Part shown: positions 4,574-64,000 of the stretch, in pieces
Layout of the letters: every line of letters begins with the position of its first letter
Numbering within the stretch: position 1 is the first letter of the stretch
DNA from: Phycisphaerae bacterium
Lineage (GTDB): Bacteria; Planctomycetota; Phycisphaerae; UBA1845; PWPN01
Assembly (NCBI GenBank): GCA_012719955.1
Contig: JAAXZI010000165.1
Location: 8,611-72,610, forward strand
Length of the DNA: 64,000 nucleotides
Reading direction: 5' to 3'
The notes under the pieces: generated by a model
The model's database searches: none
What the model saw: only the letters and a program-made list of their open reading frames with translations
What the model was told of the DNA's origin: nothing
Position numbers and translations under genes: made by a program

Positions 4574-4592
4574 ATCACGAAAGCACGAGCTG

Positions 4593-5980: not shown

Positions 5981-6125
5981 TCTCCCCCACTTCTGAAAAG
6001 GCGGGACACCCGGGTCAAATTCTGTAGCGGCCGGGCTCCGTACCGGCCGTTCTCCTCTGGAGTCTCCCTGCTCCCCATCGTCTACAAAGGGTCCCCCCAT
6101 CTCTGAAGAGGTCGGGCACCCGAGC
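5981..6125 (+). repeat. composite intergenic repeat block: ~35-bp imperfect direct repeats flanking REP-A copy 2 (6021-6056)
   Basis: 5981-6016 (TCTCCCCCACTTCTGAAAAGGCGGGACACCCGGGTC) compares with 6091-6125 (GTCCCCCCATCTCTGAAGAGGTCGGGCACCCGAGC). REP-A lies between them. Confidence 0.7.
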
Positions 6126-9041: not shown

Positions 9042-9131
9042 TGCCGGTTCCGGTCCGGAAGTTTCGTGCTTCGGCTCATGAGGCGGGCAGAATACCCGCT
9101 CCCCCGGCAGCAGCAGGCGGCTGTTCCGGCG

Positions 9132-9150
9132 GGCGGGCGTCCTGCCCGCC
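9132..9150. repeat. REP-C copy (GGCGGGCGTCCTGCCCGCC); a degenerate copy lies at 9082-9101
   Basis: Palindrome GGCGGGC/GCCCGCC. The same core occurs at 39671-39689 and 55144-55162. Confidence 0.75.
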
Positions 9151-9275
9151 TGATTCGGCGCGAAACGGGTGGACTGGAAACGGCGTCAGCGGATGCCCGA
9201 TAGAGAATCAAGAGAAGTACCCGGGATGAAAAGCGCGTCGAGCGGCGCAGGCGTCACCGGGGACTGTTTTTTCCC

Positions 9276-39644: not shown

Positions 39645-39670
39645 TGGAGGTAATGGCGGCGGTTCCGGAG

Positions 39671-39689
39671 GGCGGGCATCCTGCCCGCC
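39671..39689. repeat. REP-C copy (GGCGGGCATCCTGCCCGCC)
   Basis: Palindrome located 27 nt after the glycosidase stop. The extended match TCCGG.GGGCGGGC.TCCTGCCCGCCTGA is shared with 9125-9153. Confidence 0.75.
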
Positions 39690-39882
39690 TGACCCGCCGA
39701 GAAGCTCGGTGTACTTGTGACGGCACCAGCGACGGGAGGTCAGGAACCAAGGGCAGGAAAGAGGGGATAGCAGTTGGAGAAAGAGGAGGAATCTGTCAGA
39801 TTCAGTCGTGAGTTCAGCACCACGAGGCGATTCCGGTTTTTGACAACGAATTCCGGCAGGTGCAGCAGCGGGGTTTGACAGG

Positions 39883-48799: not shown

Positions 48800-49192
48800 A
48801 TGGCCCGTCTCACCCCCGGCGAACTGGAAGTCATGCAGGTGCTTTGGAAGGAGAGCCCCCTCAAACCCGCCGAGATTGAAGCGCGTTTACCCCGTCCCAT
48901 CGGCAATGCCGCCTTGCGATCCGTACTGAGAGTGCTGCTCAACAAGGGACATGTGAAACGGGCCAAACAGGGCAAAGCCTACTTTTATCGCCCCACCCAG
49001 CCGGCGCACTCTTCCTTTCGGCAGATGGCGCAGAAACTGGCGGATGTCTTCTTCGGAGGATCTTCGCTCGATCTGATCGCCGGCCTTATCAAGAGCGAAA
49101 AACTGTCCGACGAAGACATCCGCAAACTCCAGGATATCGTCCGCACTCGGAATGATCCGGCAGAAGCGCATCCCCCAGGAGAGAAGTCATGA
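48800..49192 (+). CDS. BlaI/MecI/CopY-family transcriptional repressor
   Basis: LTPGELEVMQVLW...PLKPAEIEARL...SVLRVLLNKGHVKR winged-helix pattern of the Penicillinase_R family. ATGA overlap with the downstream M56 gene. Confidence 0.85.
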   Translation: MARLTPGELEVMQVLWKESPLKPAEIEARLPRPIGNAALRSVLRVLLNKGHVKRAKQGKAYFYRPTQPAHSSFRQMAQKLADVFFGGSSLDLIAGLIKSEKLSDEDIRKLQDIVRTRNDPAEAHPPGEKS

Positions 49193-52134
49193 TCCATCAA
49201 TGGCTCCGCGCCTGCATCGAACTGCCCCCCGCCTGCGAACTCCTGTTCAAGATCACCATCCTGTTGACCATGGCATGGGCGCTGCATCTGGTCCTGCGGC
49301 GCGGCAACCCTTATTGGCGCGTGCTGCTCTGGCGCGGATTCGGCACGGCCATCCTCGCCACCCCCCTGCTGATCCTGGTGACACCGGAGATTCCGGTTGC
49401 CGTCCCGGCGGCGTCGCCCATGGCCGCGGGCCCGGCGATGGAGCAGGACTGGCCGCTCCTCTCCTATCAACCAGAACCGCTCACGGTAGCGGCACCCCAG
49501 GACACAGCGGCAGGAATCCCCGCGGCACCCATCGCCGCGCAACCGCCGTGGACCACGCGGGCCGCCAGGTGGATCACCGGCCACGGGCCTGCGCTGCTGG
49601 CAGCACTCTGGGCCACGGGCAGCGCGTTGCTCCTTGGGCAATGGATCCTTGCGTGGCTGCGGCTGCGGCGGATCATTGCGCTCTCGACCGCGGCGGGCGA
49701 GCACTACTGGGAACCGCTGCGCCGTGCCCAAACGGCGGTCGGATGCCATGCGAGGGTGCGGTTGCGTTTGGCCCGCGGATTGTCCAGCCCCCTGCTGGCC
49801 AGCGTTCGCACGCCGACCATTCTGATCCCCGAACATCTGGCCACCCGCACCAGCCCGGCGGAACTGCAGGCCATCCTGGCCCACGAGCTGTGCCATTTGA
49901 ACAACCGCGACTTGCTGTGGATGGCGATACTGCGCGGCCTGACCATTCTGCTCTGGTGGCACCCTCTCGCCTGGCGGCTGTGCCAGGCTCATGGCGAGGC
50001 ATGTGAAGAAGCATGTGACGCCGCCGCGGCCACCATTGTGGGCGATCCGGCCGCCTATTCCCGCACCCTGGCCCGCCTGGCGCTCGCCGCGTTGGCCCCG
50101 GCGCCCGCGCTGGCCGGCATTCCCATGGCCCGGCCCGCGCAGATAGTACGGCGCCTGTCGCGCCTGGCCATGCGCATGAATGCGTCACGGCCCGGACTGC
50201 GCCACGTGCTTCCGGCGGGTCTTCTGGCCGCCGCCGTCAGCCTGGGGCTGAGCGGCCTGCAACTGGTCGGCACGACGATGGCCGCACCGGAGACCCGGCC
50301 GGCAGACGCCGCCGCACGGGTGCTGCATTTCCCAACGGACCGGTCGCTGGGCACGCTCTTCGTCCAGGACGCCCATTCTCGGGGGGAGACAACCACCTCT
50401 TACCACTGGATGGAAGACGAGACCAGCAACCAGTGGGACGAACTCGGCCCTGCCCGCGGAGATGTGACCATCCCGGCCGGCAAGCGCGTACACCTGAGGG
50501 TCGAACGGGAAGGCTGGAAAGACCTCTCCCCGCTGGCCAGCCTCGCGCCTGACGATCTCGAGGCCTTATCCTTCAGTGGCTCAGGCCTGACCGCGGAGGA
50601 AAGCGAGGACTGGGGCATCCTGCGCGCCGAAAGCGCCGACGATGCCGTGATGCCGCACGTGGCCCGGCTCACCGGTTTGAAGAGCCTGCACCTCAATCTC
50701 ACCTGCGTGACCGGCAAGGCGCTTCGACATCTTGAAGGGTTCCAATCCCTGGAATCCCTCTCACTGCCCTGCCGGATGGATGACGAGGGCATGCCCTACG
50801 TGGCCAGACTCACCGGCCTCAAGCGGTTGTATTTCACCCGGAACACCGTCACCAATCGAGGTCTGGCCGCGCTGAAAAGCCTCCGCAACCTGGAGGAGTT
50901 GGAACTCGGCGGCAAGGCCATGAGCGACGGGGGCCTTGTGCATCTCAAATCGCTTCCTCGACTGAATCACCTGACGCTCTGGGGGACGACTTTCACGGAT
51001 GCGGGCATGGCCCACGTGGCTCAGGTTTCTTCGCTCAAGATCTTCCATCCTTTCCGCATGAACACGATTGGAGACCAGGGGCTCGCCCACCTGGCCAAGC
51101 TGCCGAACCTGCAACGGCTTGCCTTGCACTACAACGAGAAAATCACCGACGCCGGCATGGCCCACGTGGCCCGTATGCGGGCGTTGCGACAGCTCAACCT
51201 CAGTCACACGAAGATCGGCGACGCCGGCGCCAAACATCTCCAGAAGCTTCCCCACCTGGAATTGCTGAACCTGCCCAGCGGCCTCAGTTCGGACGCCCTG
51301 GTCGCCCTGCTGGCCAACCAGCCCCGGCTGCGCAGCCTGGAGTGCGGCACCACCTCCAACAGTCCATACGGGAACGAGTTGTGCGAGCAGATTGGCAAAA
51401 TGGCTGACTTGGAGGAAGTGACCATCACCGGAAGGCGGATCACCGATGCCGGGATGACTCACCTGACCAACTGCCGCAAACTCAGAAAGCTCATGCTGTT
51501 CTACTGTCCCATCACCAACAAAGGCCTTGCCGAGCTTGGCCGGATCAAATCGCTCACGAACCTGGACATCACCGGCGCAAGATTGACGACTTCCGGCCTC
51601 AAGCAGCTCAATGGCCTCACCCATCTCACTTATCTCAGACTCTCACAGGTCGAGCCCGACGAGGAATACGCGGATCTCTCCGGCCTCACCAACCTGCGGA
51701 AATTCACCTGGGGCGACAGCTCCAACGGCGAACCCTTGCGCGACGCCGACCTGGCCTCGCTGGCCAAACTGAAGAACCTCGAATGGTTTCAGATGTCCTT
51801 TGGCCGGGGAATCACCGACGCCGGCCTGGCCCACCTGGCCGGCCTGACGCAAATGAAACGGCTGTCGATTGGAGACGAACTGACCGATGCGGGATTGGCC
51901 CACCTGGCAAACATGAAGCAGCTCAATTCCCTGACCATCGCCGGCAATTTCACCGAGAAGGGCCTGCTGACGCTCGGACGCCATTCATCGCTGGCCTACC
52001 TGTGGGTGGCTACGCCCAGGCGGCTCAGCAACGACATCGCCGACCAGATGGCCGCCCGGCTGCCCAACCTGTCCTTGTTCCACTACGGCCCGGACTCTCA
52101 ACACATGCGACCACTCCAACTGAGCCGCCCCTGA
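49189..52134 (+). CDS. BlaR1-like M56 membrane metalloprotease fused to a ~600-aa leucine-rich-repeat domain
   Basis: Transmembrane N-terminus with HELCHLNNRD (HExxH) of M56. The C-terminus holds more than 15 repeats of ~24-25 aa of the type L..L.L....ITDAGLAHLA.L..L. Confidence 0.85.
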   Translation: MIHQWLRACIELPPACELLFKITILLTMAWALHLVLRRGNPYWRVLLWRGFGTAILATPLLILVTPEIPVAVPAASPMAAGPAMEQDWPLLSYQPEPLTVAAPQDTAAGIPAAPIAAQPPWTTRAARWITGHGPALLAALWATGSALLLGQWILAWLRLRRIIALSTAAGEHYWEPLRRAQTAVGCHARVRLRLARGLSSPLLASVRTPTILIPEHLATRTSPAELQAILAHELCHLNNRDLLWMAILRGLTILLWWHPLAWRLCQAHGEACEEACDAAAATIVGDPAAYSRTLARLALAALAPAPALAGIPMARPAQIVRRLSRLAMRMNASRPGLRHVLPAGLLAAAVSLGLSGLQLVGTTMAAPETRPADAAARVLHFPTDRSLGTLFVQDAHSRGETTTSYHWMEDETSNQWDELGPARGDVTIPAGKRVHLRVEREGWKDLSPLASLAPDDLEALSFSGSGLTAEESEDWGILRAESADDAVMPHVARLTGLKSLHLNLTCVTGKALRHLEGFQSLESLSLPCRMDDEGMPYVARLTGLKRLYFTRNTVTNRGLAALKSLRNLEELELGGKAMSDGGLVHLKSLPRLNHLTLWGTTFTDAGMAHVAQVSSLKIFHPFRMNTIGDQGLAHLAKLPNLQRLALHYNEKITDAGMAHVARMRALRQLNLSHTKIGDAGAKHLQKLPHLELLNLPSGLSSDALVALLANQPRLRSLECGTTSNSPYGNELCEQIGKMADLEEVTITGRRITDAGMTHLTNCRKLRKLMLFYCPITNKGLAELGRIKSLTNLDITGARLTTSGLKQLNGLTHLTYLRLSQVEPDEEYADLSGLTNLRKFTWGDSSNGEPLRDADLASLAKLKNLEWFQMSFGRGITDAGLAHLAGLTQMKRLSIGDELTDAGLAHLANMKQLNSLTIAGNFTEKGLLTLGRHSSLAYLWVATPRRLSNDIADQMAARLPNLSLFHYGPDSQHMRPLQLSRP

Positions 52135-52361
52135 TCCGCGGCTATATGACCGGGCGCGATCCTGCGATACGTGTGGGGACACGCCCCACGCCCAGCGCGC
52201 GCTCGGCCGGCTCAACCATCGCGCATAGCCACTTTGAGGAATTCCCTCCGCTTGCCGATAAGGGATCAGCTATAAGTCTGTACATCTCACGCCTTTTGTG
52301 CAGAATGGCAGCCGCCCGGAACTGTATTGGCGTCCGAAGCCTGAACTGGAAAGGAAGGACC

Positions 52362-55031
52362 GTGACCGACGCGCGCCAAAGAATCACGATCGCACCATTA
52401 CTGACACTAATTCTGTTCGTACCCGCCTGCTCGCTGGCGCCCAAGGCTCCTCTCTGGGAGCCGTCCCCGGCCAGCCGGGCGGCCGAAAAGTTCGATTATT
52501 TCCAGAACTCCTGGAGCGTCATCGGCCTGAAGGACTACAAGGACGGCACGCGGATCACACCGAGCAACGAGCTGGTGCTGGCCGGCGGGCGGAAGGTGCG
52601 CATCCGGTTCGGGCGGGAGCTGACCGCTCTGAGCCGCGAGCAGGTCAAGACCAACCTGGAAGGCTGGATGCCCATCATCCAACTGCGGGCCGTGGACGGC
52701 CAGGTCCAATACGATTTCACGTTCTGGGCCACGCCCTTAACGTCGGTGCCCGATTGGAAGGCGGCGTTCAACTGGCCGGTGGCTGGGGAGGATTACCTCA
52801 ACTGGGTGAGTGTGGCGGTCACCAACACCGGCGCGACGGCTGCCCCGGCCAAGATTCGCATCGAGCTGGTCGAGGGTGACAATGTTCGTGGGAACACGCA
52901 GGAATGGACGGTTCAGCCGGGGGTAGACCATGCGGTTGTCGGCATCGCGCATCGCTTCCCGTTCCATGCCGCCGCCGAGGAGTCGAAAGTCTCCGGCGAA
53001 GAGGCCCGGCTCTGGCTTGAGCGCACCAGGGAATGGTGGCGGGACACGTTGGCTTCGGCGGCCCGGATCGTCGTGCCGGAGGTCAAAGCCACCCAGGCCC
53101 TGCTGGCCGCTCACGTCTGCCAGTTGATCGCCCTCGATCACGGCGAGATCCACGGCGGCGAGGGCTTCTATGACCGGTTCTACGCGCGCGACGGGGCCTA
53201 CCAGATCATGGAGCTGGAAGAGGCCGGCCTGATGGACATTGCCCGCAAGGCCATTGCCGTATACCTGAAGTATCAGCGGCCGGACGGACGATTCGAGAGC
53301 CAGAAGGGTCAGCTCGACGCCAACGGCCAGTCCCTCTGGGCGCTCTGGCAGTTCTACCAGATCACCGGCGACAAGGCCTGGCTGGCCGAAGTGTATCCGC
53401 AGATGCGCCGGGCCGCGGAATGGACTATCAAGGCCCGGCGGGAAGCGCCGGCTGATTCGCCCTTTGCCGGCCTGCTGCCGAACGCCCTGGCTGACGGCGA
53501 GTATCTCTGGGACGGCCAGTATCACATCGTGGGGTACGATTTCTGGAACCTGCGCGGCTTGCTCTGCACCGCCGAAGCAGCCCGGGCCCTGGGCCGGGTC
53601 GAAGAGGCGGACGAACTGGCGCGCGAGGCGGACGACTATCGCGCGGCGATCGACGCCGCCTGGAAGCGCACCGGGTTGCCCCACTTTCCGCCAAGCTGGG
53701 AAAAGGTGGGCACCCACTGGGGCAATACGGAGACCCTGTGGCCGACCCCTTTGTTCACACCGGATGATCCGCGCGTGTCCGCCCTGATCCGCGAGGTCCG
53801 CGAGCGCCACGGAGGCGGATTCTGCGAAGGAACCATCCGCTGGACGGGCTTCCCCGGCGCCATTCATCCCTACATGTCGGCGTACACCACCATGGCCGCC
53901 CTGGAGCGCGGCGAGAGTGAGCAGGTCATCGAGGATTTCTACTGGTACCTGCTGCATTCGACGGCCACCCACGCCTTCCCCGAGGGCGTCTTCTACAAAC
54001 GGCGGTTCGCCTGGAGTGACACCATCCCCCACGCCACGGGGGCCAGCAACTACGCCATCCTGCTGCGGCACATGCTCATCCATGAACGTGGCGATGAGCT
54101 GCACCTGCTGCCGGCCGTGCCGGAATGGTGGTTCGGTCCGGGTGAGCGGATCGAAATCGAAAACGCTCCCACCCACTTTGGGCTGGTCAGCCTGCGTGTC
54201 GTCGGACGAGGGGGTGGCCTGGAGGTCGATCTCAAACTGCCGACCGAGCGGCCGGCCAGCCGGGTGGTTCTGCATCTGCCCGCCTCCCGGCGACTGCTCA
54301 CGCCGCTCCAGGGCGTGGAGGTGGTGACTGCCCCACCACAGAAGAAACGCTGGACCTTCGCGACGGTGGTGGAGCTTTACAACCGGACCGCTCCTCCGCT
54401 GGGCGGGAAGATTGAGGGTTTGGTCCATCTGCCCGCCGACCCGCCCCTGTCGCCGGGTGCCGTGAAGATGCTCAATCTGAGCGCCGCCGCCAACACCGAC
54501 CCCTTCAAGGCCCCCTTCGGAAAGGAAAACCCCGGCAAGTACCTGTTCACCGGCCTGCCCACGGGAACGCAGGTGTGCGCAGGCGTGCCCTTCACCATTC
54601 TGGATCCCTCCAAGAATGAGGGCCGGGGCCTGGTCGTCCTGCACTCACCCCAGGCCCCGCAGGACCGCACCTGGCCGAAGGAAGTCGTCATTCCCGTCGG
54701 CGAAGCCGGCAAGCGGCTGTATTTCCTGGGCAATGTGCACGGATGGGCGCCCGATGACCCCGGCGAGGGCGAATGGGGCGCGGTGGCTGAGTACATCATC
54801 CGCTATGCGGACGGCGAGTCGCAGACGGTGCCGCTCATCACCGGGCGGACGACCGAGGAATGGACCGCGTCGCCGTCGGCGAGCGACGTGTTCTGCGCAT
54901 TGCGGGGCGACCCCTGGCATCTCAACGTGCTGGGCGTGGAGCTGCGTCCGGTGAAGGTCGAGAGCATCGTGTTCCACGATCGCGGAACGCCGGCGGCACC
55001 GGTACTGGTGGCGGTCACGCTGGAGCGATGA
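52362..55031 (+). CDS. lipoprotein, six-hairpin (alpha/alpha)6 glycosidase-like protein with a C-terminal beta-rich domain
   Basis: GTG at 52362 after AAGGAAGGA gives the lipobox LFVPAC. GFYDRFYARDGAYQ...DANGQSLWALWQFYQITGD resembles GH15/GH63-type toroid folds. The 51783 start overlaps the LRR gene and is rejected. Confidence 0.75.
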   Translation: MTDARQRITIAPLLTLILFVPACSLAPKAPLWEPSPASRAAEKFDYFQNSWSVIGLKDYKDGTRITPSNELVLAGGRKVRIRFGRELTALSREQVKTNLEGWMPIIQLRAVDGQVQYDFTFWATPLTSVPDWKAAFNWPVAGEDYLNWVSVAVTNTGATAAPAKIRIELVEGDNVRGNTQEWTVQPGVDHAVVGIAHRFPFHAAAEESKVSGEEARLWLERTREWWRDTLASAARIVVPEVKATQALLAAHVCQLIALDHGEIHGGEGFYDRFYARDGAYQIMELEEAGLMDIARKAIAVYLKYQRPDGRFESQKGQLDANGQSLWALWQFYQITGDKAWLAEVYPQMRRAAEWTIKARREAPADSPFAGLLPNALADGEYLWDGQYHIVGYDFWNLRGLLCTAEAARALGRVEEADELAREADDYRAAIDAAWKRTGLPHFPPSWEKVGTHWGNTETLWPTPLFTPDDPRVSALIREVRERHGGGFCEGTIRWTGFPGAIHPYMSAYTTMAALERGESEQVIEDFYWYLLHSTATHAFPEGVFYKRRFAWSDTIPHATGASNYAILLRHMLIHERGDELHLLPAVPEWWFGPGERIEIENAPTHFGLVSLRVVGRGGGLEVDLKLPTERPASRVVLHLPASRRLLTPLQGVEVVTAPPQKKRWTFATVVELYNRTAPPLGGKIEGLVHLPADPPLSPGAVKMLNLSAAANTDPFKAPFGKENPGKYLFTGLPTGTQVCAGVPFTILDPSKNEGRGLVVLHSPQAPQDRTWPKEVVIPVGEAGKRLYFLGNVHGWAPDDPGEGEWGAVAEYIIRYADGESQTVPLITGRTTEEWTASPSASDVFCALRGDPWHLNVLGVELRPVKVESIVFHDRGTPAAPVLVAVTLER

Positions 55032-55062: not shown

Positions 55063-55094
55063 TGTAGCGGCCGGGCTCCGTACCGGCCGCTACA
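55063..55094. repeat. REP-A copy 3, full palindrome TGTAGCGGCCGG-GCTCCGTA-CCGGCCGCTACA
   Basis: 12-bp perfect stem between convergent genes (stops at 55031 and 55209). It could act as a bidirectional terminator or RNA stabiliser. Confidence 0.85.
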
Positions 55095-55143: not shown

Positions 55144-55162
55144 GGCGGGCAGGATGCCCGCC
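55144..55162. repeat. REP-C copy (GGCGGGCAGGATGCCCGCC)
   Basis: Same palindrome as 39671-39689, in the opposite orientation. Confidence 0.75.
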
Positions 55163-55208
55163 CCCCGATGGCGATGTCCGGCCCCTTCCGAGGAGCCAGC
55201 CCAGAAGC

Positions 55209-56468
55209 TCAGGCAAGCCGCCGACGGCCGCCCGGACCGGTGCCGATGGTCCGGCCAAGTGATCGGATACGGCTCTTGAGGCAGCCGCGACAGTGCTGGG
55301 CCGTCTCCGTGATGCACGCTTTCGCCGGGTAGATCTCGTACATGGCCCGGTACTGAACGGGGGTGAGGTTGGGCATCACCACGTTGGCCCCCCGGCACAG
55401 GGCCAGCTCGCGTCCGCTCTCCTGGTTGAGGGTGGCGATGGCGGTCGTGCCGGGAATGTTGGCCTGGGGGCACATCAGTCGGGTCAGGGCCACCATTTTG
55501 TACGCCATCTTCTCCGTATTGGGCACCTGGTCCGCCGAGGGGTGAGGCTCCGGCCGGGTTGCCAAGCGCTCCCCCAGCGGCGTGTCCGGATGCGGGATGT
55601 ACGGCCCCACGCCGATCATGTCGAGGTCCAACTCGCGGAACAACAGCAGATCGCGCGCGAGCGTCTCGTAGGTCTGCCCGGGAATGCCCACCATCACACC
55701 GCTGCCAATCTCATAGCCCAACCCGCGGAGCGTCCTCAGCAGTTCCACGCGGTCGGAAGGGCGCGAACCCAACGGCGGATGAATGCGGGCGTAGAGCTCA
55801 CGGTCGGACGTCTCGAAGCGAAGCAGGTAGCGGTCCGCCCCCGCTTCGCGCCAGGCGGCAAGGTCCTCGACCGGCCGTTCGCCCAGGCTCAGCGTGACCG
55901 CGAGGGGCGTCTCGGCCTTGATCTGGCGGATCAGCCGGGCGAGCCAGCTCCGGCCGATGCCGTAGTCCTCGCCGGCCTGCATGACCACCGTGCCGTAACC
56001 GAACTCGACCGCCTGGCGGGCACAGGCGAGGACCTCGTCGGCCGACAGACGATAGCGCACCAGCTTGGTGTGCCCGGCGCGCAGGCCGCAGTAGGCGCAC
56101 TGCCGCACGCAGTGGTTGGAGATCTCGACCAGCCCGCGCAGATGCACGGCATCGCCCACCATTTCATGCCGCACACGGTCCGCGGCTGCGTACAGCGTTT
56201 CCAGCCGGGAGTCGTCCTCTTCGCGCAGCCAGTGGAGAAGGTCGGTTTCGGTCAGTGGGCTTTCCAGGTGCGATGCGCCGTCAGCAGCGGACGCGGAACG
56301 GCCGGTACGGAGCCCGGCCGCTACAGAGTTGGCATGGAGGCCGGGCGGTACGGGGTTGGTACGAGGCCCGGGCGCGACAGAGCCGGCGGAAACATGGGCC
56401 GGCCCTGCCGGTGTTGCGCCTTCCGGCGAGCTAGAACAGTGGTTCAGAATGGGTAAAGAGCTCAGCAC
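55209..56468 (-). CDS. hydE: [FeFe]-hydrogenase maturase HydE (radical SAM) with a repeat-derived N-terminal extension
   Basis: EISNHCVRQCAYCG radical-SAM motif. HydE-like blocks VMQAGED and LRFETSD. GTG start overlaps the hydF stop by 7 nt. Confidence 0.9.
   Translation of the reverse strand: MLSSLPILNHCSSSPEGATPAGPAHVSAGSVAPGPRTNPVPPGLHANSVAAGLRTGRSASAADGASHLESPLTETDLLHWLREEDDSRLETLYAAADRVRHEMVGDAVHLRGLVEISNHCVRQCAYCGLRAGHTKLVRYRLSADEVLACARQAVEFGYGTVVMQAGEDYGIGRSWLARLIRQIKAETPLAVTLSLGERPVEDLAAWREAGADRYLLRFETSDRELYARIHPPLGSRPSDRVELLRTLRGLGYEIGSGVMVGIPGQTYETLARDLLLFRELDLDMIGVGPYIPHPDTPLGERLATRPEPHPSADQVPNTEKMAYKMVALTRLMCPQANIPGTTAIATLNQESGRELALCRGANVVMPNLTPVQYRAMYEIYPAKACITETAQHCRGCLKSRIRSLGRTIGTGPGGRRRLA
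56299..56327 (-). repeat. REP-A copy 4, inside the hydE 5' coding region (translated SVAAGLRTGRS); degenerate copies up to ~56390
   Basis: The plus strand reads CGGCCGGTACGGAGCCCGGCCGCTACAGA. The adjacent 56331-56390 is a decayed tandem copy. Confidence 0.85.
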
Positions 56469-57739
56469 GCCATCTTCTCCTGTTCGAAACCCCTGCCTGC
56501 CCGTCTGGCAGTCCAGGCCCGCTGATAGACTTCCATGGCCGCGGGGAACGGTTGTAGGGCCCGTTCAAACAAGCCCAGACTGTAGGAGATCACCAGCCCG
56601 TAATTCGTGATGGGCACGCCCGCCTGCCGGCAGCGCAGGATGCGCGTGAGCACTTCGCGTCGGTTGGTCATACACGCTCCGCAATGGATGACCAGCTTGT
56701 AGGGGGACAGGTCCTCCGGAAAATCGTGGCCCTGCACGTGCTCGAATTTCAGCTCGCCGCCCACGTACTGCGTGAGCCAGCGTGGGATCTTGACCCGGCC
56801 GATGTCCTCGGCAATGGGATGATGGGAGCAGGCCTCGGCCACCAGAACGCGGTCGCCGGCCCGCAGCACATCCACCGCCAGCGTGCCCTCCACCTGCGCG
56901 GCCAAGTCGCCTTTGAAGCGGGCAAAGAGAATGGAGAAGCTGGTCATGGGGATTTCCGGCGGCGTGTCGGCAGCCACCTTGAGGAAGGCTTGAGAGTCAG
57001 TTACCACCAGGGCGGGCGGCTCGGAGAGCATCTCCAGCGCCCGGGGCAGTTCGCGCTCCTTGACCACCATGCAGAACGCGTCGTGATCGAGCAGATCGCG
57101 GATGGTCTGAACCTGAGGCAAAATCAGCCGGCCCCGCGGGGCCTCCTTGTCGATGGGCACGACCAGGACAGCCGCCCGGCCCGGCGGTACCAGGTCGGCC
57201 AGAATGGTCGGGTTGTTCACGAAATCGGCCGGGGCCACATCCAGCAGGGCCTGGCGGAAATCAAGCATGCCCTCGCCCCGGCTGGCCGCGGTCCGCACCA
57301 GCCTCACGTTCAGCCCGGTCAGCTTTTGCACCAGCTCCGGGTCGGGCGCCGCCAAGTCGATCTTGTTGAACACGACCACCACCGGCACGTTCCGCTTGCG
57401 CAGCTCCGCGAGCACCTGATCCTCAAATGCCCCCCACGCGCCGGCTTCGGCCACGATGACCCCCAGATCGGTACGATCCAGCACCTGGCAGGTCTTACGC
57501 ACGCGCAAAGCGCCAAGCGCGCCCTCATCGTCCACGCCGGCGGTATCGATGAAGAGCACCGGCCCCAGCGGCAGCAGCTCCATGGGCTTCTCAACGGGGT
57601 CGGTCGTGGTGCCCGCGAACTCGGACACGATCGACACCTGCTGGCGCGTGACGGCGTTGAGCAGGCTCGACTTGCCGACGTTGCGACGGCCAAAGAGGCC
57701 GATGTGCAAACGCAGGCTCCGGGGAGTTGAGCGATTCAT
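56462..57739 (-). CDS. hydF: [FeFe]-hydrogenase maturation GTPase HydF
   Basis: GRRNVGKSSLLNA P-loop, DTAG, NKID. C-terminal EACSHH...HCGACM cluster-binding motifs. AAGGAGA RBS. Confidence 0.92.
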   Translation of the reverse strand: MNRSTPRSLRLHIGLFGRRNVGKSSLLNAVTRQQVSIVSEFAGTTTDPVEKPMELLPLGPVLFIDTAGVDDEGALGALRVRKTCQVLDRTDLGVIVAEAGAWGAFEDQVLAELRKRNVPVVVVFNKIDLAAPDPELVQKLTGLNVRLVRTAASRGEGMLDFRQALLDVAPADFVNNPTILADLVPPGRAAVLVVPIDKEAPRGRLILPQVQTIRDLLDHDAFCMVVKERELPRALEMLSEPPALVVTDSQAFLKVAADTPPEIPMTSFSILFARFKGDLAAQVEGTLAVDVLRAGDRVLVAEACSHHPIAEDIGRVKIPRWLTQYVGGELKFEHVQGHDFPEDLSPYKLVIHCGACMTNRREVLTRILRCRQAGVPITNYGLVISYSLGLFERALQPFPAAMEVYQRAWTARRAGRGFEQEKMAC

Positions 57740-57818: not shown

Positions 57819-59231
57819 TCACACGAACACGTCCCGGCCGCCGATCCTCACCTTCGTTACCAGCTTCTCGGCGATTTGCCGGCCGCGGGGGTCCATCTCC
57901 CCCATCGCGGCCTGGATGCGCGCCTCGCCGGCCTGGCGCGTGGGCCCGGAGGCGTAGTCGCACAGGTATTCCTGGAACGTGGAGAGAGCGTTGGGATCGC
58001 AGTGATGTTTGATCTCCCCCGGCTTGGCCAGATCCATGAAGTCCTGACCGGTCCGGCCCAGGCGATAGCACGCGGTGCAGAAGGAGGGAATGTAGCCCAG
58101 TTCCGCGACATCGCGCACGACCTCGTCCAGCGGACGGTGATCGCCCAGGGCGAATTGCTCGGTGGCCTCGCCTTCACCTTCCTCATAACCGCCGGGGTTG
58201 GTCCGGCTGCCGGCGGAGATCTGAGAGACGCCCAGGGCGAAGGTCTCCCGGCGAATGGCGGGCGACTCGCGCGTGGACATGATGATGCCGGTGTACGGAA
58301 CGGAGATCCGCAGAATAGCGACGATCTTGAGAAAGTCGATATCGCTGACCGACTGCGGCGGGCGCCCGGCCAGTGGCGCGCCCAGGGCCGGCTCGATCCG
58401 CGGGACGCTGATGGTATGCGGGCCGACGCCGAACTTCTCTTCCAGGTGGCGGATATGCTGCATCAGGGCCAGGATCTCGAAGCGCCAGTCGGCCAGTCCG
58501 AACAGCACGCCCATGCCCACGTCATCGATGCCCGCTTCCATGGCCCGGTCGAAGGCCGAGATCCGCCAATCGTAATCGCGCTTCCTGCCGGCCACGTGCA
58601 CCCGTGAATACACCTCCCGGTGGTAGGTCTCCTGGAAGAGCTGATAGGTGCCGATGCCGGCGGCTTTGAGTTGCCTGAACTGATCCAGGGTCAGCGGGGC
58701 GACGTTGGCGTTCACGCGGCGGACCTCGCCGGGACCGACTTTGGTGTCATAAATGGTCGCGATGGCCTTGAGTATGTAATCGAAGCCTTCCTCCGCGGGG
58801 TAAGCTTCGCCGGCCACCAGCAGGATGCGCTTGTGGCCCTGGCGGATGATGAGCTCGGTTTCGCGGGCGATCTCGGCCTGGGTGAGAGCCCGCCGTCGAA
58901 GGGCCTTGTTCCCGGCCCGGAAGGCGCAATACAGGCACTCGTTGCCGCACAGGTTGGAGATGTAGAGCGGGGCAAACAGCACCAGCCGCTTGCCGTAGAT
59001 TTCCTCCTTGACCCGCCGGGCGGTGGCGAACAGCTCATTCAACAGGCCCGGGTCGCTGAGGTTCATCAATACGGCCATCTCTTCAGGTTCGAGCCCCTTG
59101 AGGGCCAGGGCCTTGGTCAATATCTCGCGCACCTGCGACGCGTCACACCGGCGGCTTTGCGCCAGCGTGTGCTCGATCTTCTCGTAATTGATCGGTACTG
59201 TCTCGACGTTGCGCGTTACCACTGCGTTCAT
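57819..59231 (-). CDS. hydG: [FeFe]-hydrogenase maturase HydG (radical SAM tyrosine lyase)
   Basis: NLCGNECLYCAF radical-SAM motif and the C-terminal CTACYR...HHCDPN auxiliary cluster motif. Confidence 0.92.
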   Translation of the reverse strand: MNAVVTRNVETVPINYEKIEHTLAQSRRCDASQVREILTKALALKGLEPEEMAVLMNLSDPGLLNELFATARRVKEEIYGKRLVLFAPLYISNLCGNECLYCAFRAGNKALRRRALTQAEIARETELIIRQGHKRILLVAGEAYPAEEGFDYILKAIATIYDTKVGPGEVRRVNANVAPLTLDQFRQLKAAGIGTYQLFQETYHREVYSRVHVAGRKRDYDWRISAFDRAMEAGIDDVGMGVLFGLADWRFEILALMQHIRHLEEKFGVGPHTISVPRIEPALGAPLAGRPPQSVSDIDFLKIVAILRISVPYTGIIMSTRESPAIRRETFALGVSQISAGSRTNPGGYEEGEGEATEQFALGDHRPLDEVVRDVAELGYIPSFCTACYRLGRTGQDFMDLAKPGEIKHHCDPNALSTFQEYLCDYASGPTRQAGEARIQAAMGEMDPRGRQIAEKLVTKVRIGGRDVFV

Positions 59232-59337: not shown

Positions 59338-59479
59338 CCTTCTCCTTGCCCCTCGTCCTCTTGTCTCCTTGTCCCCTTGTCGGCGTATCGCCTGAACGGC
59401 CGGTACGGAGCCCGGCCGCTACAGGGGTGGGACGGAGCCCGGCTGCTACCTCTTACAAGTAGCTGCTACCACCTACAGG
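59338..59479. repeat. composite repeat block: pyrimidine-rich copy of the zwf repeat (59338-59381), REP-A copy 5 (59397-59425), and two degenerate REP-A units (59426-59479)
   Basis: Exact 22-mer shared with 1621-1642 (reverse complement). CGGCCGGTACGGAGCCCGGCCGCTACAGG. The following GGTGGGACGGAGCCCGGCTGCTACC and CTACAGG units decay progressively. Confidence 0.8.
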
Positions 59480-60636
59480 TACTCAACGGTCACCAGCTTT
59501 CCGGCACGGCGCAGCTTCTCCGCCAGCAGGGGCACGATGTTTTCACGGTGCAGGATGCCCCGCTGTCGGAAGGCAATGTTGTCGTGATCGGCGTTCCGCT
59601 TTCTGCCGACGAGGAACAGCACGCGATCGGCCTCCCGGAGCAGCTCGCACAAGCGGCTCACGCCGGTGGCCTTCTCGTACTTGCCGGGATCTTCGTCGAT
59701 GATGTTGTACGCCTGGTTGAGCGTCACCGCTCCTTCAGTGGCCAGGTCCACGTCCTTGAGCACGTAATCGGGCGGAGCAATCAGGCTGCTGGCCTCCTGG
59801 CGCACGGCCACACTGGTGTGCGTGTGGCGGGCAACGATTTTGGCGGTCGTGCCCCCGCATACCACCTTCCGCCCTTCCAGACTCATGAACCGCCGCACCA
59901 CCGCACCGTCGTCCTCCTCGTCGGCGGGCGGGCCGGTCAATACGTTGACGATGCGGCCCTGGCGGCAGCGAGCCAGCAGCACCGTACAGTCGTCTCCCTG
60001 GGCCAGCCGTCCGGGTTCTTCCGAAAGGTTCTGGGCCTGGAAATGCACCGAGGCGGACAGCTTATCCAGGGGCAGGCCGGTGCTGAGTTTCCCATTGATG
60101 TAACGGCATGCGCCCTCGATGCCCCAGCCCTCCGCATAACCGGCGCCCAGCCCCGCCTGGGTGACGCCGTCGCTGACCAGCATCAGGGCCTCACCAGGCT
60201 CGACGTAACAGTCGGACTCATGCACCAGCGCATTGTCCAGCAGCAGCGTCCGGTGCGGCAGGACGGTGGCGAACTTCTTGGCGCTGATCACGATGGCCGG
60301 CGGCATCTCGTACGAGAGCACCGTGGTCTCACCGTCGTTGGCGATCCGGGCGATGGTAAAGCAGGCGTAGGGCAGGTCGCTGCCCCGGATCCCGGCCATG
60401 GTGCCGGCCACGCCGGCCATGGCTTCGCGCAGCGAGTAGTCGCGGCGCAGCAGCTCGTGAAGCCGCGAGACGGTCATGGTCGCCGCCACGTTGGCCCTGA
60501 TGCCGGAGCCGATCCCGTCACAGCAGATGATGGTTGTGCCGCGAACCGTGCGTTCCCAGGACACCACGTCGCCGCACAAGCCACCAACCCGCCGGGGGCT
60601 CTGGCATGCGTCTATTTCGACGTGTACATATCCCAT
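59473..60636 (-). CDS. SpoIIE/PP2C-like serine phosphatase with an uncharacterised C-terminal domain (HfsC-like)
   Basis: GDVV...CCDGIGSG...CFTIARI...GEALMLVSDGV follows the SpoIIE/PPM pattern. Overlaps the hydS end by 25 nt. Confidence 0.75.
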   Translation of the reverse strand: MGYVHVEIDACQSPRRVGGLCGDVVSWERTVRGTTIICCDGIGSGIRANVAATMTVSRLHELLRRDYSLREAMAGVAGTMAGIRGSDLPYACFTIARIANDGETTVLSYEMPPAIVISAKKFATVLPHRTLLLDNALVHESDCYVEPGEALMLVSDGVTQAGLGAGYAEGWGIEGACRYINGKLSTGLPLDKLSASVHFQAQNLSEEPGRLAQGDDCTVLLARCRQGRIVNVLTGPPADEEDDGAVVRRFMSLEGRKVVCGGTTAKIVARHTHTSVAVRQEASSLIAPPDYVLKDVDLATEGAVTLNQAYNIIDEDPGKYEKATGVSRLCELLREADRVLFLVGRKRNADHDNIAFRQRGILHRENIVPLLAEKLRRAGKLVTVEYL

Positions 60637-62372
60637 ATCATGGGCCTTCCCTGAGGGGTCCGCGGATCGTTGGCATACTGGAGCAGGTTGCGGACCAGTT
60701 CCTCGCCGCGGGCCGTGCTCTCGCCGAGCAGCTTGGCGATCTGCTGGGCCATGGTGATCTGGTGCTCGAGCAGCTCGCGCGCCTGCCGGGCGGTCTGCGA
60801 TTGAAGCTGTTGCAGTTTCTCTTCGTTGGCCTGGCTGTGGGTGACGTTCACGAAGATACCGACGTACTGGCCTTCAGCCTCCAGCCGGTAGAGGATCTGG
60901 TGGCACAGCAGCTTGTACTTCTGATGGTGGACCGTGATGGAGACCGGCTCATGGCCATTTACGGCGAGCTGTTCAAAGGGCTCAGGGTCCATCAGGTACG
61001 AGATCTTTCGCCCGCACACCGCGTCTGAGCAGCAGAACATCTTCCGGAACGCCGCGTTCATGTGAATGATCTCGAACCGGTCGTTGAGAATCACGATGCC
61101 GTTGGGGCTGGTGTCGATGATGCGGTCGGTGCGCTGCTCGGCCAGCAGCCGCATGCGCGGAATGCACATCTCCGGCTCGGCCAGGCCGCGCAGGACGGCG
61201 ATGGCTTTCTCCCGGCAGCTCGAATAGCCGCAGGACCCGCAATTAAGCTGGTCCTCCACGCGGGCCTTGCCGGTCTTTTCGAGCACGGCCCGAATCTGTT
61301 CCTCGGTGAACTCCTCGCCGCCGGCGGTCGCGTCGGGAGCGAAGTTCTGGTTCAGCTCGACGCCCTCGACGAGCGACTCGGAACGGGCCGTCGGGGTGGA
61401 CTGGGCATAATCCAGCACGGCAGCGCGTTTGCCATAGAGATTGCCCCCGGCCGGCATGCCGGGCCCGTTCACACAGCCCTGGGCGCAGAACAGCGGTTCG
61501 ATCATCCGCGGGAAAGCGTCGTGACGAATGCCGTCCAGGGCCTCGGACACCTCTTCGAAGCCGCTGGGAGCGATGCACTCTTCGGCGAGCAGGTCGGTGT
61601 GCAGGGCGGCAGTTTTAGCCAGCCCGCCGGGCAGAGGGAAGAAGCGGGCGTGCCCGGCGGGGCTGGCGTCAAACCGACTCTCCTCGAGTTCCGCGAGCAC
61701 GATGTCTTCGCGCTCGAACCATTCCATCAATTCCTTGAAGGTCAGCACGCAGTGGACCAGCCGGCTGTGGCCGGGCCACTGGGCTTCCGCCTTCTTGGCT
61801 ACGCACGGGCCGATGAACACCACTTTGGTCCGCGGCCCCAGCGCGGCGCGGATCAGGCGGGCATGGGCAATCATGGGCGAGACCACCGGCACCAGGGCGT
61901 CAATCAGCTCCGGCCGGTACTTCTCCACGTAGCTCACCACCGCGGGGCAGGCGGTGCACACGTGCGGGCGCTCGGGTTCGGCGGCCACCACGCGGGCGGT
62001 CTGGGCGGCCACGTGAAACGCGCCCCTGGCGGTTTCGGCCACGTAGGAAAAACCCAGCTTCCGCAACGCGGAGGGCAATCGTTTCCACTCCCATTCGCTC
62101 CACAGGGCGGCAAAGGAGGGAGCCACACTGGCCGCCACCGGATCGCCCCCGGCCAGCAACCGCGCCGCCCGTTCGAGGTCGTTGCGGTAGGCCTTGGCCC
62201 CCTGCGGGCACTGGCGAATGCAGGTCCCGCAGGCGATGCACCGGCCCTCGTCAACGAACGCCTGTCCGTCGCGCACCCCGATGGCCTTCACCGGGCAGGC
62301 CCGCACGCACCGGTAGCAGTCCCGGCAGCGGGCCTTGTCCGTGAAGACGATCTGGGTGGTAGTGGGTTGCAT
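60612..62372 (-). CDS. hydS: sensory [FeFe]-hydrogenase-like protein (HydS/HfsB type): 2x[4Fe-4S] ferredoxin, H-cluster-like domain, Cys motif and PAS
   Basis: CRDCYRCVRACP and CIACGTCIRQCP. H-domain variants VCTACPAVV, GPCVAKKAEA, FCAQGCVNGPG. CGSCGYSSC. The C-terminal PAS region includes SPNGIVILNDRFEIIHMNAAFRKMF. I prefer the ATG at 62372 over the TTG at 62387. Confidence 0.85.
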   Translation of the reverse strand: MQPTTTQIVFTDKARCRDCYRCVRACPVKAIGVRDGQAFVDEGRCIACGTCIRQCPQGAKAYRNDLERAARLLAGGDPVAASVAPSFAALWSEWEWKRLPSALRKLGFSYVAETARGAFHVAAQTARVVAAEPERPHVCTACPAVVSYVEKYRPELIDALVPVVSPMIAHARLIRAALGPRTKVVFIGPCVAKKAEAQWPGHSRLVHCVLTFKELMEWFEREDIVLAELEESRFDASPAGHARFFPLPGGLAKTAALHTDLLAEECIAPSGFEEVSEALDGIRHDAFPRMIEPLFCAQGCVNGPGMPAGGNLYGKRAAVLDYAQSTPTARSESLVEGVELNQNFAPDATAGGEEFTEEQIRAVLEKTGKARVEDQLNCGSCGYSSCREKAIAVLRGLAEPEMCIPRMRLLAEQRTDRIIDTSPNGIVILNDRFEIIHMNAAFRKMFCCSDAVCGRKISYLMDPEPFEQLAVNGHEPVSITVHHQKYKLLCHQILYRLEAEGQYVGIFVNVTHSQANEEKLQQLQSQTARQARELLEHQITMAQQIAKLLGESTARGEELVRNLLQYANDPRTPQGRPMIWDMYTSK

Positions 62373-62378
62373 GGTAGA

Positions 62379-62526
62379 TTTCAGCAATCAGCTTTCAGCG
62401 ATCAGCGATCAGCTTTCAGCTTTGTAGCGGCCGGGCTCTGTACCGGCCGTTGTTCTGTAGCGGCCGGGCTCCGTACCGGCCGTTGTGTTCACGATGCCCA
62501 TGGCCGGTACGGAGTCCGGCCGTTAC
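62379..62526. repeat. intercistronic repeat cluster: simple TTTCAGC/RATCAGC tandem (62379-62422) followed by REP-A copies 6, 7 (direct) and 8 (inverted)
   Basis: 62423-62450 and 62456-62484 are tandem copies. 62502-62526 is the reverse complement, so copies 7 and 8 can pair over ~21 bp. Confidence 0.85.
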
Positions 62527-62542
62527 GTGTCGGCGACGACAC

Positions 62543-64000
62543 CTACTTCGGCTCCACGGCCACGGCTTCATCCAAAGCCTGGCAGGCGGCCTGGAAGGTG
62601 CACTTGTGTATGAGCTTGTCGCCCACCACCACGGTGGGGCCTTTGTCGCACTGCTCGAAGCAGAACGAAGCCTTCACGTCAACCACGTCCTGCAGGCCAC
62701 GTTCCTCAACGTGGCGGATCAGATTGTGCAGCAGCGTCTGGGCCCCGCGGACCATACAGTTGGTGCCCACACACACGCTGATATTCAGCTTGCTCCGATC
62801 ACCATCCACCAGCGAGAGGCTGGTGTCGGCGATGCGCCGCCGGCTGTGATAATGGGTGTGCAACAGCTCGTGGGCCCGCTCGCCGCCGATTTCACCCAGC
62901 TCCTCCCGGTAGAGTTCGCTGATGAAGTGGTTCTCCTGCGGCTTGTGCAGCTCGAGCATCTTGTCGGCCTCGTAGAGGCCCTCGGTGCGAAGCCGGCGGG
63001 GCTGGCGGTCGCGGTAGACCGGCTGGCCGGCGCCGCCGATGCAGCCGCCGGGGCAGGCCATCACCTCGATCAGGTCGTACGGGCTCTGCCCGGCCTTGAC
63101 CTGCTCGGCCACCTTGCGGGCGTTGGCCAGGCCGTGAACGACGGCCAGCCGCAGTTTCTGGCCGCCCACTTCCAATGTGGCCTCCCGAAGGCCCTCTTCG
63201 CCGCGAACAGCTTCGAAGTCCACCGAGTCAAGAGTCACGCCGGTCAGTTTCTCGACGGCGTAGCGCAACACGGCCTCGGTCACGCCGCCGGAGTTGCCGA
63301 AGATCACGCCGGCCCCGGTCTTGAAGCCGAAGGGCATGTCCAGCGATTCCGGCCGGAGCGTGTTGAACTTCAACCCGGCCTCTTCGATCATTCGGGCCAG
63401 TTCCTGCGTCGTCAGCACGTAATCCACGTCGCGGACACCGTCCTTCTGGAAGCGCGGGAGCTGAGCCTCGAACTTCTTGGCCGTGCACGGCATGATGGAC
63501 ACAATCACGAGGTCCTTCCGGTCCACGTTCAGCTTCGCCGGCAGCAGGTCCTTGGCCAGGGCGCCGAACATCTGCTGAGGACTCTTGCAGCTCGACAGAT
63601 GCGGCAGCAGGTCCGGGAAATACTGCTCCGCGAATTTCACCCAGCCGGGGCAGCAGGAGGTGAACTGCGGGATGTTCTTGGCCGCCTGTTTACGGGCGAT
63701 GAACTCGTTGGCCTCCTCGATGACGGTCAGGTCGGCGGTAAAGGAGGTGTCGTAGACGTAGTTGAAGCCCATGGCCTTGAGAGCGGCCACGATCTTGCCG
63801 GTCACCACCGTGCCGGGTTCGAGCCCGAAGGCTTCGCCCAGGCCCACGCGCACGGCCGGGGCAATCTGGGCCACGACCACTTTCCTGGGATTATCAAGCT
63901 CCTTCCAGACCTGCTCGACTTCAGACCTGGGCGTCAGCGCTCCGGTCGGGCAGACATTGGCACACTGTCCGCAGTAGACGCACTCGACGTCCTTGAGGTC
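62543..64000 (-). CDS. hydA: [FeFe]-hydrogenase catalytic subunit with a C-terminal thioredoxin-like [2Fe-2S] domain; 5' end beyond the window
   Basis: H-cluster motifs FTSCCPGW, MPCTAKKFEA and MACPGGCIGGAGQP. The frame stays open to nt 64000 (…ECVYCGQCANVCPTGAL…). The C-terminal CVGTNC…CFEQC is a NuoE-like pattern. Confidence 0.93.
   Translation of the reverse strand, partial: DLKDVECVYCGQCANVCPTGALTPRSEVEQVWKELDNPRKVVVAQIAPAVRVGLGEAFGLEPGTVVTGKIVAALKAMGFNYVYDTSFTADLTVIEEANEFIARKQAAKNIPQFTSCCPGWVKFAEQYFPDLLPHLSSCKSPQQMFGALAKDLLPAKLNVDRKDLVIVSIMPCTAKKFEAQLPRFQKDGVRDVDYVLTTQELARMIEEAGLKFNTLRPESLDMPFGFKTGAGVIFGNSGGVTEAVLRYAVEKLTGVTLDSVDFEAVRGEEGLREATLEVGGQKLRLAVVHGLANARKVAEQVKAGQSPYDLIEVMACPGGCIGGAGQPVYRDRQPRRLRTEGLYEADKMLELHKPQENHFISELYREELGEIGGERAHELLHTHYHSRRRIADTSLSLVDGDRSKLNISVCVGTNCMVRGAQTLLHNLIRHVEERGLQDVVDVKASFCFEQCDKGPTVVVGDKLIHKCTFQAACQALDEAVAVEPK

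Follow-up and report, generated by a model that had tools for sequence, protein, structure and literature searches.

Which codon starts hydE when a repetitive palindrome lies between the conserved core of the gene and its only conventional upstream start codon? The question arises in a 64,000-nt stretch of DNA from an uncultured Phycisphaerae bacterium (contig JAAXZI010000165.1 of assembly GCA_012719955.1; hereafter the window), where the hydrogenase maturase gene hydE directly follows hydF and an array of GTAG-tagged repetitive extragenic palindromic (REP) units falls within the first codons of its 419-codon open reading frame (ORF). We consider it probable that the main product is a long HydE that carries the translated repeat and is started from a GTG overlapping the hydF stop codon. 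The features on which this reading is based are collected in Table 1.

The only canonical start of hydE that spares the core

The gene was identified as hydE by the NCBIfam model TIGR03956 (317.8 bits; cut-off 254.6) and by matches to HydE structures in PDB (E = 1.6e-86). As expected of a radical S-adenosylmethionine (SAM) maturase, the product carries a CX3CX2C motif (C120, C124 and C127, encoded at 56088-56111), the cysteines of which are invariant across the homologue alignment, and the gene lies in a hydG-hydF-hydE context. Model position 8 of the profile pairs with ORF residue 69 and the alignments with PDB HydE chains begin at residue 84, so that about 60-70 extra N-terminal codons are present, in agreement with the ~65 extra residues of the original prediction.

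No in-frame ATG, GTG or TTG was found between codon 1 and V99 of the ORF. V99 (GTG) lies 21 codons and M103 (ATG) 17 codons ahead of the first radical-SAM cysteine, C120, which corrects an earlier count of about 16 codons for the first downstream GTG. A start at either position would remove the model helices H74-82 and H86-103, as had been anticipated for the downstream GTG, and with them W80, L81, E83, L89, L92 and A96, all invariant in 22 homologues. The orthologue alignment that had been proposed as a check was run, and GTG 56468 was the only canonical in-frame start that retained these conserved residues between W80 and A96.

This GTG overlaps the hydF stop codon by 7 nt (GTGCTGA, 56462-56468), exactly as predicted, and a Shine-Dalgarno-like GGAG is found 8 nt upstream, inside the 3' end of hydF. 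GGAG or GAGG precedes about one-third of the ORF starts in the window against a background of 10%; hydF itself is preceded by GGAG and hydG by GGAAGG. The overlap of start and stop, the Shine-Dalgarno motif within 5-10 nt and the persistence of the layout in relatives are consistent with a hydE start that is translationally coupled to hydF. As a separate observation, an exact 14-nt repeat, GGAGAAGATGGCGT, occurs on the minus strand at 56467-56480, across the GGAG/GTG start region (hydF 3' end, ...QEKMAC*), and at 55502-55515 within hydE (...NTEKMAYK...); this may be chance.

The start region in HydE relatives

In four relatives with 68-75% identical HydE (loci L002, L004, L006 and L007), a GGAG-N7/8-ATG/GTG arrangement was found at the hydF stop, and it persists although the C-terminal residues of HydF differ. 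Where hydF is located directly upstream, the hydE start lies between -19 and +6 nt from the hydF stop in about 30 of 38 loci, and across the wider locus set such starts often take the form ATGA or GTGA. The wider comparison covered 80 HydE loci from other species among the matches listed. In nearly all of them the canonical start is 8-24 codons from the conserved Trp, and the greatest unambiguous distance is 29 codons (L007, with no alternative start and a 22-codon tail that scores as coding), compared with 79 codons in the window. The ancestral state is given by L004, L006 and L007, in which a coupled start lies 10-29 codons from the core. In L002 a start lies 40 codons ahead of the Trp, and two alternatives are found nearer to it, at 15 and 8. 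Four other loci (L009, L017, L021 and L025) have a long hydF-hydE spacer and their own ATG beside the core.

The window is a hybrid, with the coupled start still in place but 200 nt away from the core. Given that no canonical start is found near the core and that the coupled GTG is conserved, the GTG is favoured as the HydE start. The claim that it is the sole plausible start holds for canonical codons; that hydE is 'obliged' to use it is more than sequence can demonstrate, since a CTG at 56255 is a rival. At a smaller scale, a start ambiguity was also seen at L002 5001-5121 (HydE ~70% identical), where the hydF stop and an ATG preceded by AGGAG overlap. No HydE relative at 75-100% identity was found in 5.8 billion proteins.

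Anatomy of the N-terminal extension

The intact REP unit, CTGTAGCGGCCGGGCTCCGTACCGGCCGTT, is read as (S)VAAGLRTGR(S) and contains an exact match to the 25-mer GTAGCGGCCGGGCTCCGTACCGGCC at 56300-56324 on the minus strand. Two diverged REP-like units adjoin it, as detected by Tandem Repeats Finder (period 27, 2.8 units, 56309-56382, 72% matching) and by a repeat search, and the array is translated as VAPGPRTNP / VPPGLHANS / VAAGLRTGRS. Besides the decayed and the intact REP unit of the original description, the extension holds a GC-rich hairpin with a 13-bp stem at 56375-56410, which stands outside the repeat family. A search of the window and of 204 loci gave no further copy of this hairpin or of the two diverged units.

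The repeat genuinely lies between hydF and the hydE core. The locus DNA is base-for-base identical in a second metagenome-assembled genome (GCA_035402185.1), and the exact 419-aa product was found on 42 independently assembled contigs (NCBI, ENA and JGI), indicating that the repeat at hydE is no assembly artefact.

Several other origins and roles of the extension were considered. A larger composite mobile element was rejected, as the non-REP parts of the extension had no copies in the window or the 204 loci, and the flanks of the five best REP copies did not align past the 30-nt core except in the hydE and hydG doublets. An ancestral N-terminus split by the insertion, with ILNH as its early and ETDLLHWL as its late part (compare MTLNHETLVQWL in L006), was also dropped: the late segment SPLTETDLLHWL aligns fully with relatives and the early match is just 9 nt. 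A possible target duplication, CTGAAC/CTGACC, was abandoned together with this idea. As an RNA, the whole spacer was not predicted to be more stable than shuffled sequences (z = -0.96), no U-tract follows the hairpins and thus nothing indicates an intrinsic terminator, and an Rfam scan of the whole window gave zero family matches.

GC contents at the three codon positions are 0.70/0.69/0.65 in the extension and ~0.69/0.45/0.85 in real genes of the window; the HydE core has the full coding signature, with a third-position GC content (GC3) of 0.86. The tail is predicted to be disordered, as AlphaFold2 gave residues 1-60 no secondary structure and a predicted local distance difference test score of 31-39, compared with >90 for the core. 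In PDB HydE constructs, the N-terminus is 10 residues longer than in native chains (offsets 37 and 27). The extension looks like recently acquired repeat-derived DNA and not like an evolved domain.

REP copies in the window and in other genes

Eight copies of GTAGCGGCCGGGCTCCGTACCGGCC with up to 2 mismatches were found in the window, compared with none in 100 shuffled sequences. They share an invariant core of 30 nt (CTGTAGCGGCCGGGCTCCGTACCGGCCGTT) with a GC stem of 7-11 bp and an 8-nt loop (-18.6 kcal/mol), and all begin with GTAG or GTAA. Six of the eight lie outside genes, four of them between co-directional genes and the other two in gaps between convergent ones. The doublet upstream of hydG is 86% identical to that in hydE, and the copies at 62457(+) and 62502(-) form an inverted pair. 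These are the properties of GTAG-tagged REPs: a GC-rich palindrome of 20-40 nt with a GTAG end, dispersed, mostly extragenic and forming dimers and clusters. A crude motif search (HUH + Y..NP) of the window and of 0.89 Mb of REP-bearing loci found no REP-associated tyrosine transposase (RAYT).

One other copy in the window lies inside a gene. In the Gfo/Idh/MocA-type oxidoreductase gene, the element is translated as ...PDPVAAGLRTGRSPQ... in the same frame as in hydE (VAAGLRTGRS), as the original prediction had noted. Here ~95 conserved residues follow the REP in the same frame, so the element is unavoidably translated. The insert of ~37 aa is located between HFQAEVPR and GYxKDS and is absent from P0126, P0128 and P0129; the aligned homologues share 47-71% identity.

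In metagenome contigs, the exact 25-mer was found in more than 116 stretches, and 161 distinct REP sites were obtained across 117 loci. As the automatic site classifier was strict and left most sites unclassified, only its in-frame class was used, which placed ~6-8 of 138 assessable sites in frame within genes. About 10 of the metagenome loci contained +/- REP pairs at a spacing of 15-20 nt; tandem arrays were seen as well. The in-frame hosts encode MutL, a resistance-nodulation-division (RND) efflux adaptor, GltB, HypF, MetH, GatB and a DnaE-type polymerase (loci L129, L137, L151, L154, L161, L168 and L193). In MutL, the REP falls in an interdomain linker; GltB contains three antisense units and the DnaE-type polymerase two copies. 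The insert is absent from homologues, with conserved sequence on both sides, in the oxidoreductase, MutL, GltB, HypF, MetH, GatB and DnaE, while in HydE conserved sequence is found only on the C-terminal side. All six sense in-frame copies (hydE, the oxidoreductase, MutL, the RND adaptor, MetH and GatB) use VAAGLRTGR, although the REP has one other open sense frame.

Other repeats were observed in the window. A second palindromic family, GGGCGGGCATCCTGCCCGCC, occurs at 9131-9150, 39670-39689 and 55144-55163; the flanks of the first two (9116-9164 and 39655-39703) share 86% identity over 49 nt and the third lies just downstream of the hydE stop, beside the REP at 55064. A tandem repeat of CCTTGTCC (x4.9, 59344-59381) adjoins the REP doublet upstream of hydG, and a TTTCAGC tandem (x6.4, 62379-62423) abuts the REP pair at 62424. 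Another tandem repeat, GACAAGGG (x4.2), is found at 1621-1654, and a repeat of its type is translated as GQGDK... within the DnaE ORF of L193. An unrelated 27-nt tandem repeat, CCGGCCTCCCCGGCTTCGGCGGACACG, is present in 3.5 copies at 11151-11242, near the 3' end of ORF 9276-11261.

Long form or other starts

In the reading that we prefer, a GTAG-tagged REP, now a 27-nt-period array with unique flanking DNA, would have come to lie within the first hydE codons, between the ancestral start at the hydF stop and the conserved core. With the added DNA in frame and free of stops, ribosomes recruited to GTG 56468 by the GGAG 8 nt upstream, or arriving by termination-reinitiation after hydF, would traverse the hairpins and make full HydE with a disordered, Pro/Gly/Ala/Ser-rich tail of ~60-70 residues, which would be a tolerated passenger sequence and not a functional domain. 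We infer that the GTG is the start in use and that the mature protein carries the tail. Its frame and openness were presumably maintained by selection against hydE knock-outs.

A number of observations weigh against this reading. Codons 11-71 of hydE have a log-odds of -0.54 per codon, ~6 sd under coding windows (mean of real genes +0.57, sd 0.17); none of 2278 true coding windows scored as low and the value is typical of stop-free out-of-frame windows, compared with +0.28 for codons 1-10 and +0.57 for codons 72-101. The extension has not evolved as coding DNA, and whether it is translated cannot be read off its composition. In DNA as GC-rich as this, a run of 70 codons without a stop is no rarity, at a probability of 0.25-0.31, and 1/3 for the frame times ~0.3 for openness gives an in-frame stop-free spacer by chance at ~0.1. 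CTG L72 sits at the commonest start position of the family, 8 codons before the Trp, as judged from about 70 HydE relatives with canonical starts at 8-40 codons, and four NCBI records on identical DNA annotate the start there (348 aa, MTETDLL...; HOB74622.1, HOJ53577.1, HOL25266.1 and HPP20519.1). In L002, a 32-codon spacer resembling non-coding DNA is followed by a TTG, again 8 codons before the Trp. All available copies of the locus are identical, providing no polymorphism with which selection on the frame could be tested.

Much of this would be accounted for if HydE of a normal 348-352 aa were started from the CTG at 56255-56253 (or that at 56267-56265), with the REP array as an untranslated spacer, the hairpins of which would act as RNA to shield the hydF 3' end or reduce hydE output, and with the open frame back to GTG 56468 as an accident or relic. 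We hold this to be unlikely, though by no means negligible. The position of L72, shared with the TTG of L002, and the non-coding look of the 70 upstream codons, as of the L002 spacer, speak for it, as does the extragenic location of 6 of 8 window REPs, including copies in two co-directional gaps of the same hydrogenase cluster. For other species, Di Nocera et al. (PMC3733652) also took the majority of REPs found at ORF 5' ends to be extragenic. On the other hand, neither in-frame CTG, at L68 or L72, has GGAG or GAGG upstream, and the four long-spacer relatives all retain an ATG near the core. In the bacteria that have been studied, CTG initiates translation very poorly. The GGAG-N8-GTG is intact at its conserved coupled position, open and in frame, and ribosomes starting there would make the long form anyway; a CTG start would also need the loss of a canonical start plus the ~0.1 coincidence of frame and openness. 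Both the long and the CTG-started forms might be made. The predicted tryptic peptides SASAADGASHLESPLTETDLLHWLR and TNPVPPGLHANSVAAGLR are specific to a start upstream of L68, with (M)LSSLPILNH... as the N-terminus of the GTG-started product, and the CTG starts predict (M)TETDLLHWLR or (M)ESPLTETDLLHWLR.

That the repeat insertion cut hydE off from its start, leaving a gene that is dispensable or becoming a pseudogene, is very unlikely. The lack of a canonical start near the core and two strong hairpins in the 5' region (-18.6 and -25.3 kcal/mol) could be so understood, but the core keeps its full coding signature (log-odds +0.53, GC3 0.86), neither the CX3CX2C motif nor any invariant residue is missing and the model score is above the cut-off, the frame is intact across 419 codons, and intact copies of hydG, hydF and two [FeFe]-hydrogenase genes lie alongside. 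We find it extremely improbable that a truncated HydE is made from GTG V99 (56172-56174) or ATG M103 (56160-56162). Past the repeat, no canonical start comes before these two, and one JGI call (P0123, 317 aa) starts at M103, but such a product would lose both model helices and the six invariant residues; moreover, no relative has a start at this position and neither codon has GGAG or GAGG upstream.

A more far-reaching proposal, which we regard as distinctly unlikely, is that hydE, lacking a conventional start near its core, depends on read-through of the REP, the single-frame bias reflecting either a phase preference or a selected linker, or else that the array serves as a regulatory spacer for a CTG start. 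The element might insert with a phase preference or be selected as a benign linker cassette, in which case the termini and linkers of proteins would be systematically reshaped as REPs spread through this Phycisphaerae lineage. Another possibility is that the array forces rare CTG initiation and thereby keeps HydE very low.

As an observation on public records, identical DNA carries two HydE models, one of 419 aa from the GTG (MGB4258416.1 and JGI) and one of 348 aa (the four NCBI records); the conflict spans 56253-56468 of the window and 3001-4047 of L001. Either gene model can be squared with the usual rules only by special pleading, and the spread of REPs in GC-rich genomes can remove the conventional start of a gene.

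Genomic context

HydF was identified by TIGR03918 and HydG by an NCBIfam equivalog model. Upstream of the maturase genes lie genes for a phosphatase and two [FeFe] hydrogenases or hydrogenase-like proteins, one sensory and one of the catalytic type. The gene order of the hydrogenase and maturase cluster in L004 is identical to that in the window. REP copies were observed at 3 of the 5 junctions among the six cluster genes and in the gap directly downstream of hydE. Beyond this gap, two long ORFs (49189-52134 and 51783-55031) overlap each other by ~350 nt. The former contains repeated units of 31-41 nt (50775-51909) that resemble leucine-rich-repeat coding; the latter (1082 aa) is probably over-extended, as the NCBI gene in L001 is 889 aa.

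Table 1. Coordinates of the features discussed, in window positions
Feature	Position	Strand	Remarks
GTG start candidate	56466-56468	minus	sole canonical in-frame start upstream of HydE core
GGAG Shine-Dalgarno-like motif	56477-56480	minus	8 nt upstream of GTG, within hydF 3' end
hydE ORF	55209-56468	minus	419 aa, GTG start (ORF listing)
Extension	56256-56465	minus	codons 2-71; non-coding composition, predicted disorder
HydE core	55209-56252	minus	residues 73-419 + stop; coding log-odds +0.53
Intact GTAG-tagged REP unit	56297-56326	minus	read (S)VAAGLRTGR(S); hairpin -18.6 kcal/mol
Two diverged 27-nt REP-like units	56327-56382	minus	encode VAPGPRTNP, VPPGLHANS
Unique GC-rich hairpin	56375-56410	minus	13-bp stem, -25.3 kcal/mol; outside repeat family
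CTG L72	56253-56255	minus	rival non-canonical start, 8 codons before W80
CTG L68	56265-56267	minus	second in-frame CTG
hydF	56462-57739	minus	425 aa, upstream cistron; TGA stop 56462-56464; TIGR03918 552 bits, cut-off 325
hydG	57819-59231	minus	NCBIfam equivalog model, above curated cut-off
SpoIIE/PP2C phosphatase gene	59473-60636		upstream of maturase genes
PAS-containing (sensory) [FeFe]-hydrogenase-like gene	60612-62387		upstream of maturase genes
Catalytic-type [FeFe] hydrogenase gene	62543-63880		thioredoxin-like 2Fe-2S domain; upstream of maturase genes
REP copy in Gfo/Idh/MocA oxidoreductase (ORF 4521-5978)	5640-5664	plus	same frame, VAAGLRTGRS
REP copy	6024-6048	plus	convergent gap downstream of oxidoreductase
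REP copy	55064-55088	plus	perfect 11-bp stem; convergent gap downstream of hydE
REP doublet	59398-59449	minus	intact + diverged unit, 27-nt period; between SpoIIE-like gene and hydG
Three REP copies	62424-62526	62424+, 62457+, 62502-	gap upstream of sensory [FeFe]-hydrogenase-like gene

Comparison with known systems

The stop-start coupling of hydF and hydE in relatives (ATGA or GTGA) resembles the arrangement in the window, where the candidate start overlaps the upstream stop and a Shine-Dalgarno motif lies inside hydF, but here start and stop overlap by 7 nt (GTGCTGA), and 79 codons instead of 8-29 separate the start from the core. In Escherichia coli operons such as malE-malF, an intercistronic REP hairpin is co-transcribed and can set the relative expression of the flanking genes; such REPs are untranslated, and the gene behind them retains a ribosome-binding site and start of its own. 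The hydE REP is also located between two cistrons, but no canonical start follows it.

Closer to the element described here are the GTAG REPs, one of two large REP superfamilies (Di Nocera, De Gregorio and Rocco 2013, BMC Genomics 14:522, PMC3733652), to which our unit, with its 7-11-bp stem, 8-nt loop and 27-nt tandem period, was likened by description. Planctomycetes are among their reported hosts, and the Verrucomicrobium Opitutus terrae, of the same Planctomycetes-Verrucomicrobia-Chlamydiae (PVC) group, has them in abundance. Like the copies in the window and metagenome loci, they are short GC-rich palindromes with a GTAG end and many dispersed copies, form dimers and clusters, lie mostly between co-directional or convergent genes, and in a minority of cases fall in frame in housekeeping genes, including DnaE-type ones. 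REPs within genes, notably those for replication and repair, occur as single units, dimers or clusters that encode 20-82 residues, and a sizeable class is found at ORF N-termini, most of which were judged extragenic because their homologues are shorter (PMC3733652). Whether such N-terminal REPs are translated is discussed in that study.

Another parallel, and the classic one, is provided by the Rickettsia palindromic elements (RPEs), which, as summarised in PMC10969869, are in-frame palindromic insertions in unrelated genes (Ogata et al. 2000 Science 290:347), retained as extra peptide much as the REP appears to be here. Rickettsia proteins with an N-terminal RPE are reported to be expressed (PMC3733652). 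RPEs are ~100-150 bp long and encode a conserved peptide in reduced intracellular genomes; the units here are 27-30 nt and mostly extragenic.

In-frame and N-terminal REPs with an ambiguous start were thus already described in 2013 (PMC3733652), and the novelty of the hydE case had been overrated in the original prediction. What is particular here is that most N-terminal cases of that study had a downstream start and hydE has no canonical one, while its upstream start is conserved and, judging from the sequence layout, coupled; moreover, the gene belongs to an uncultured Phycisphaerae lineage. The locus is an annotation caveat and a tidy example, unsurprising to a specialist and opening no new question. 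In sum, if the preferred GTG start is the one used, hydE would be a clean example, among the in-frame GTAG REPs, of an essential maturase that tolerates ~70 repeat-derived residues.

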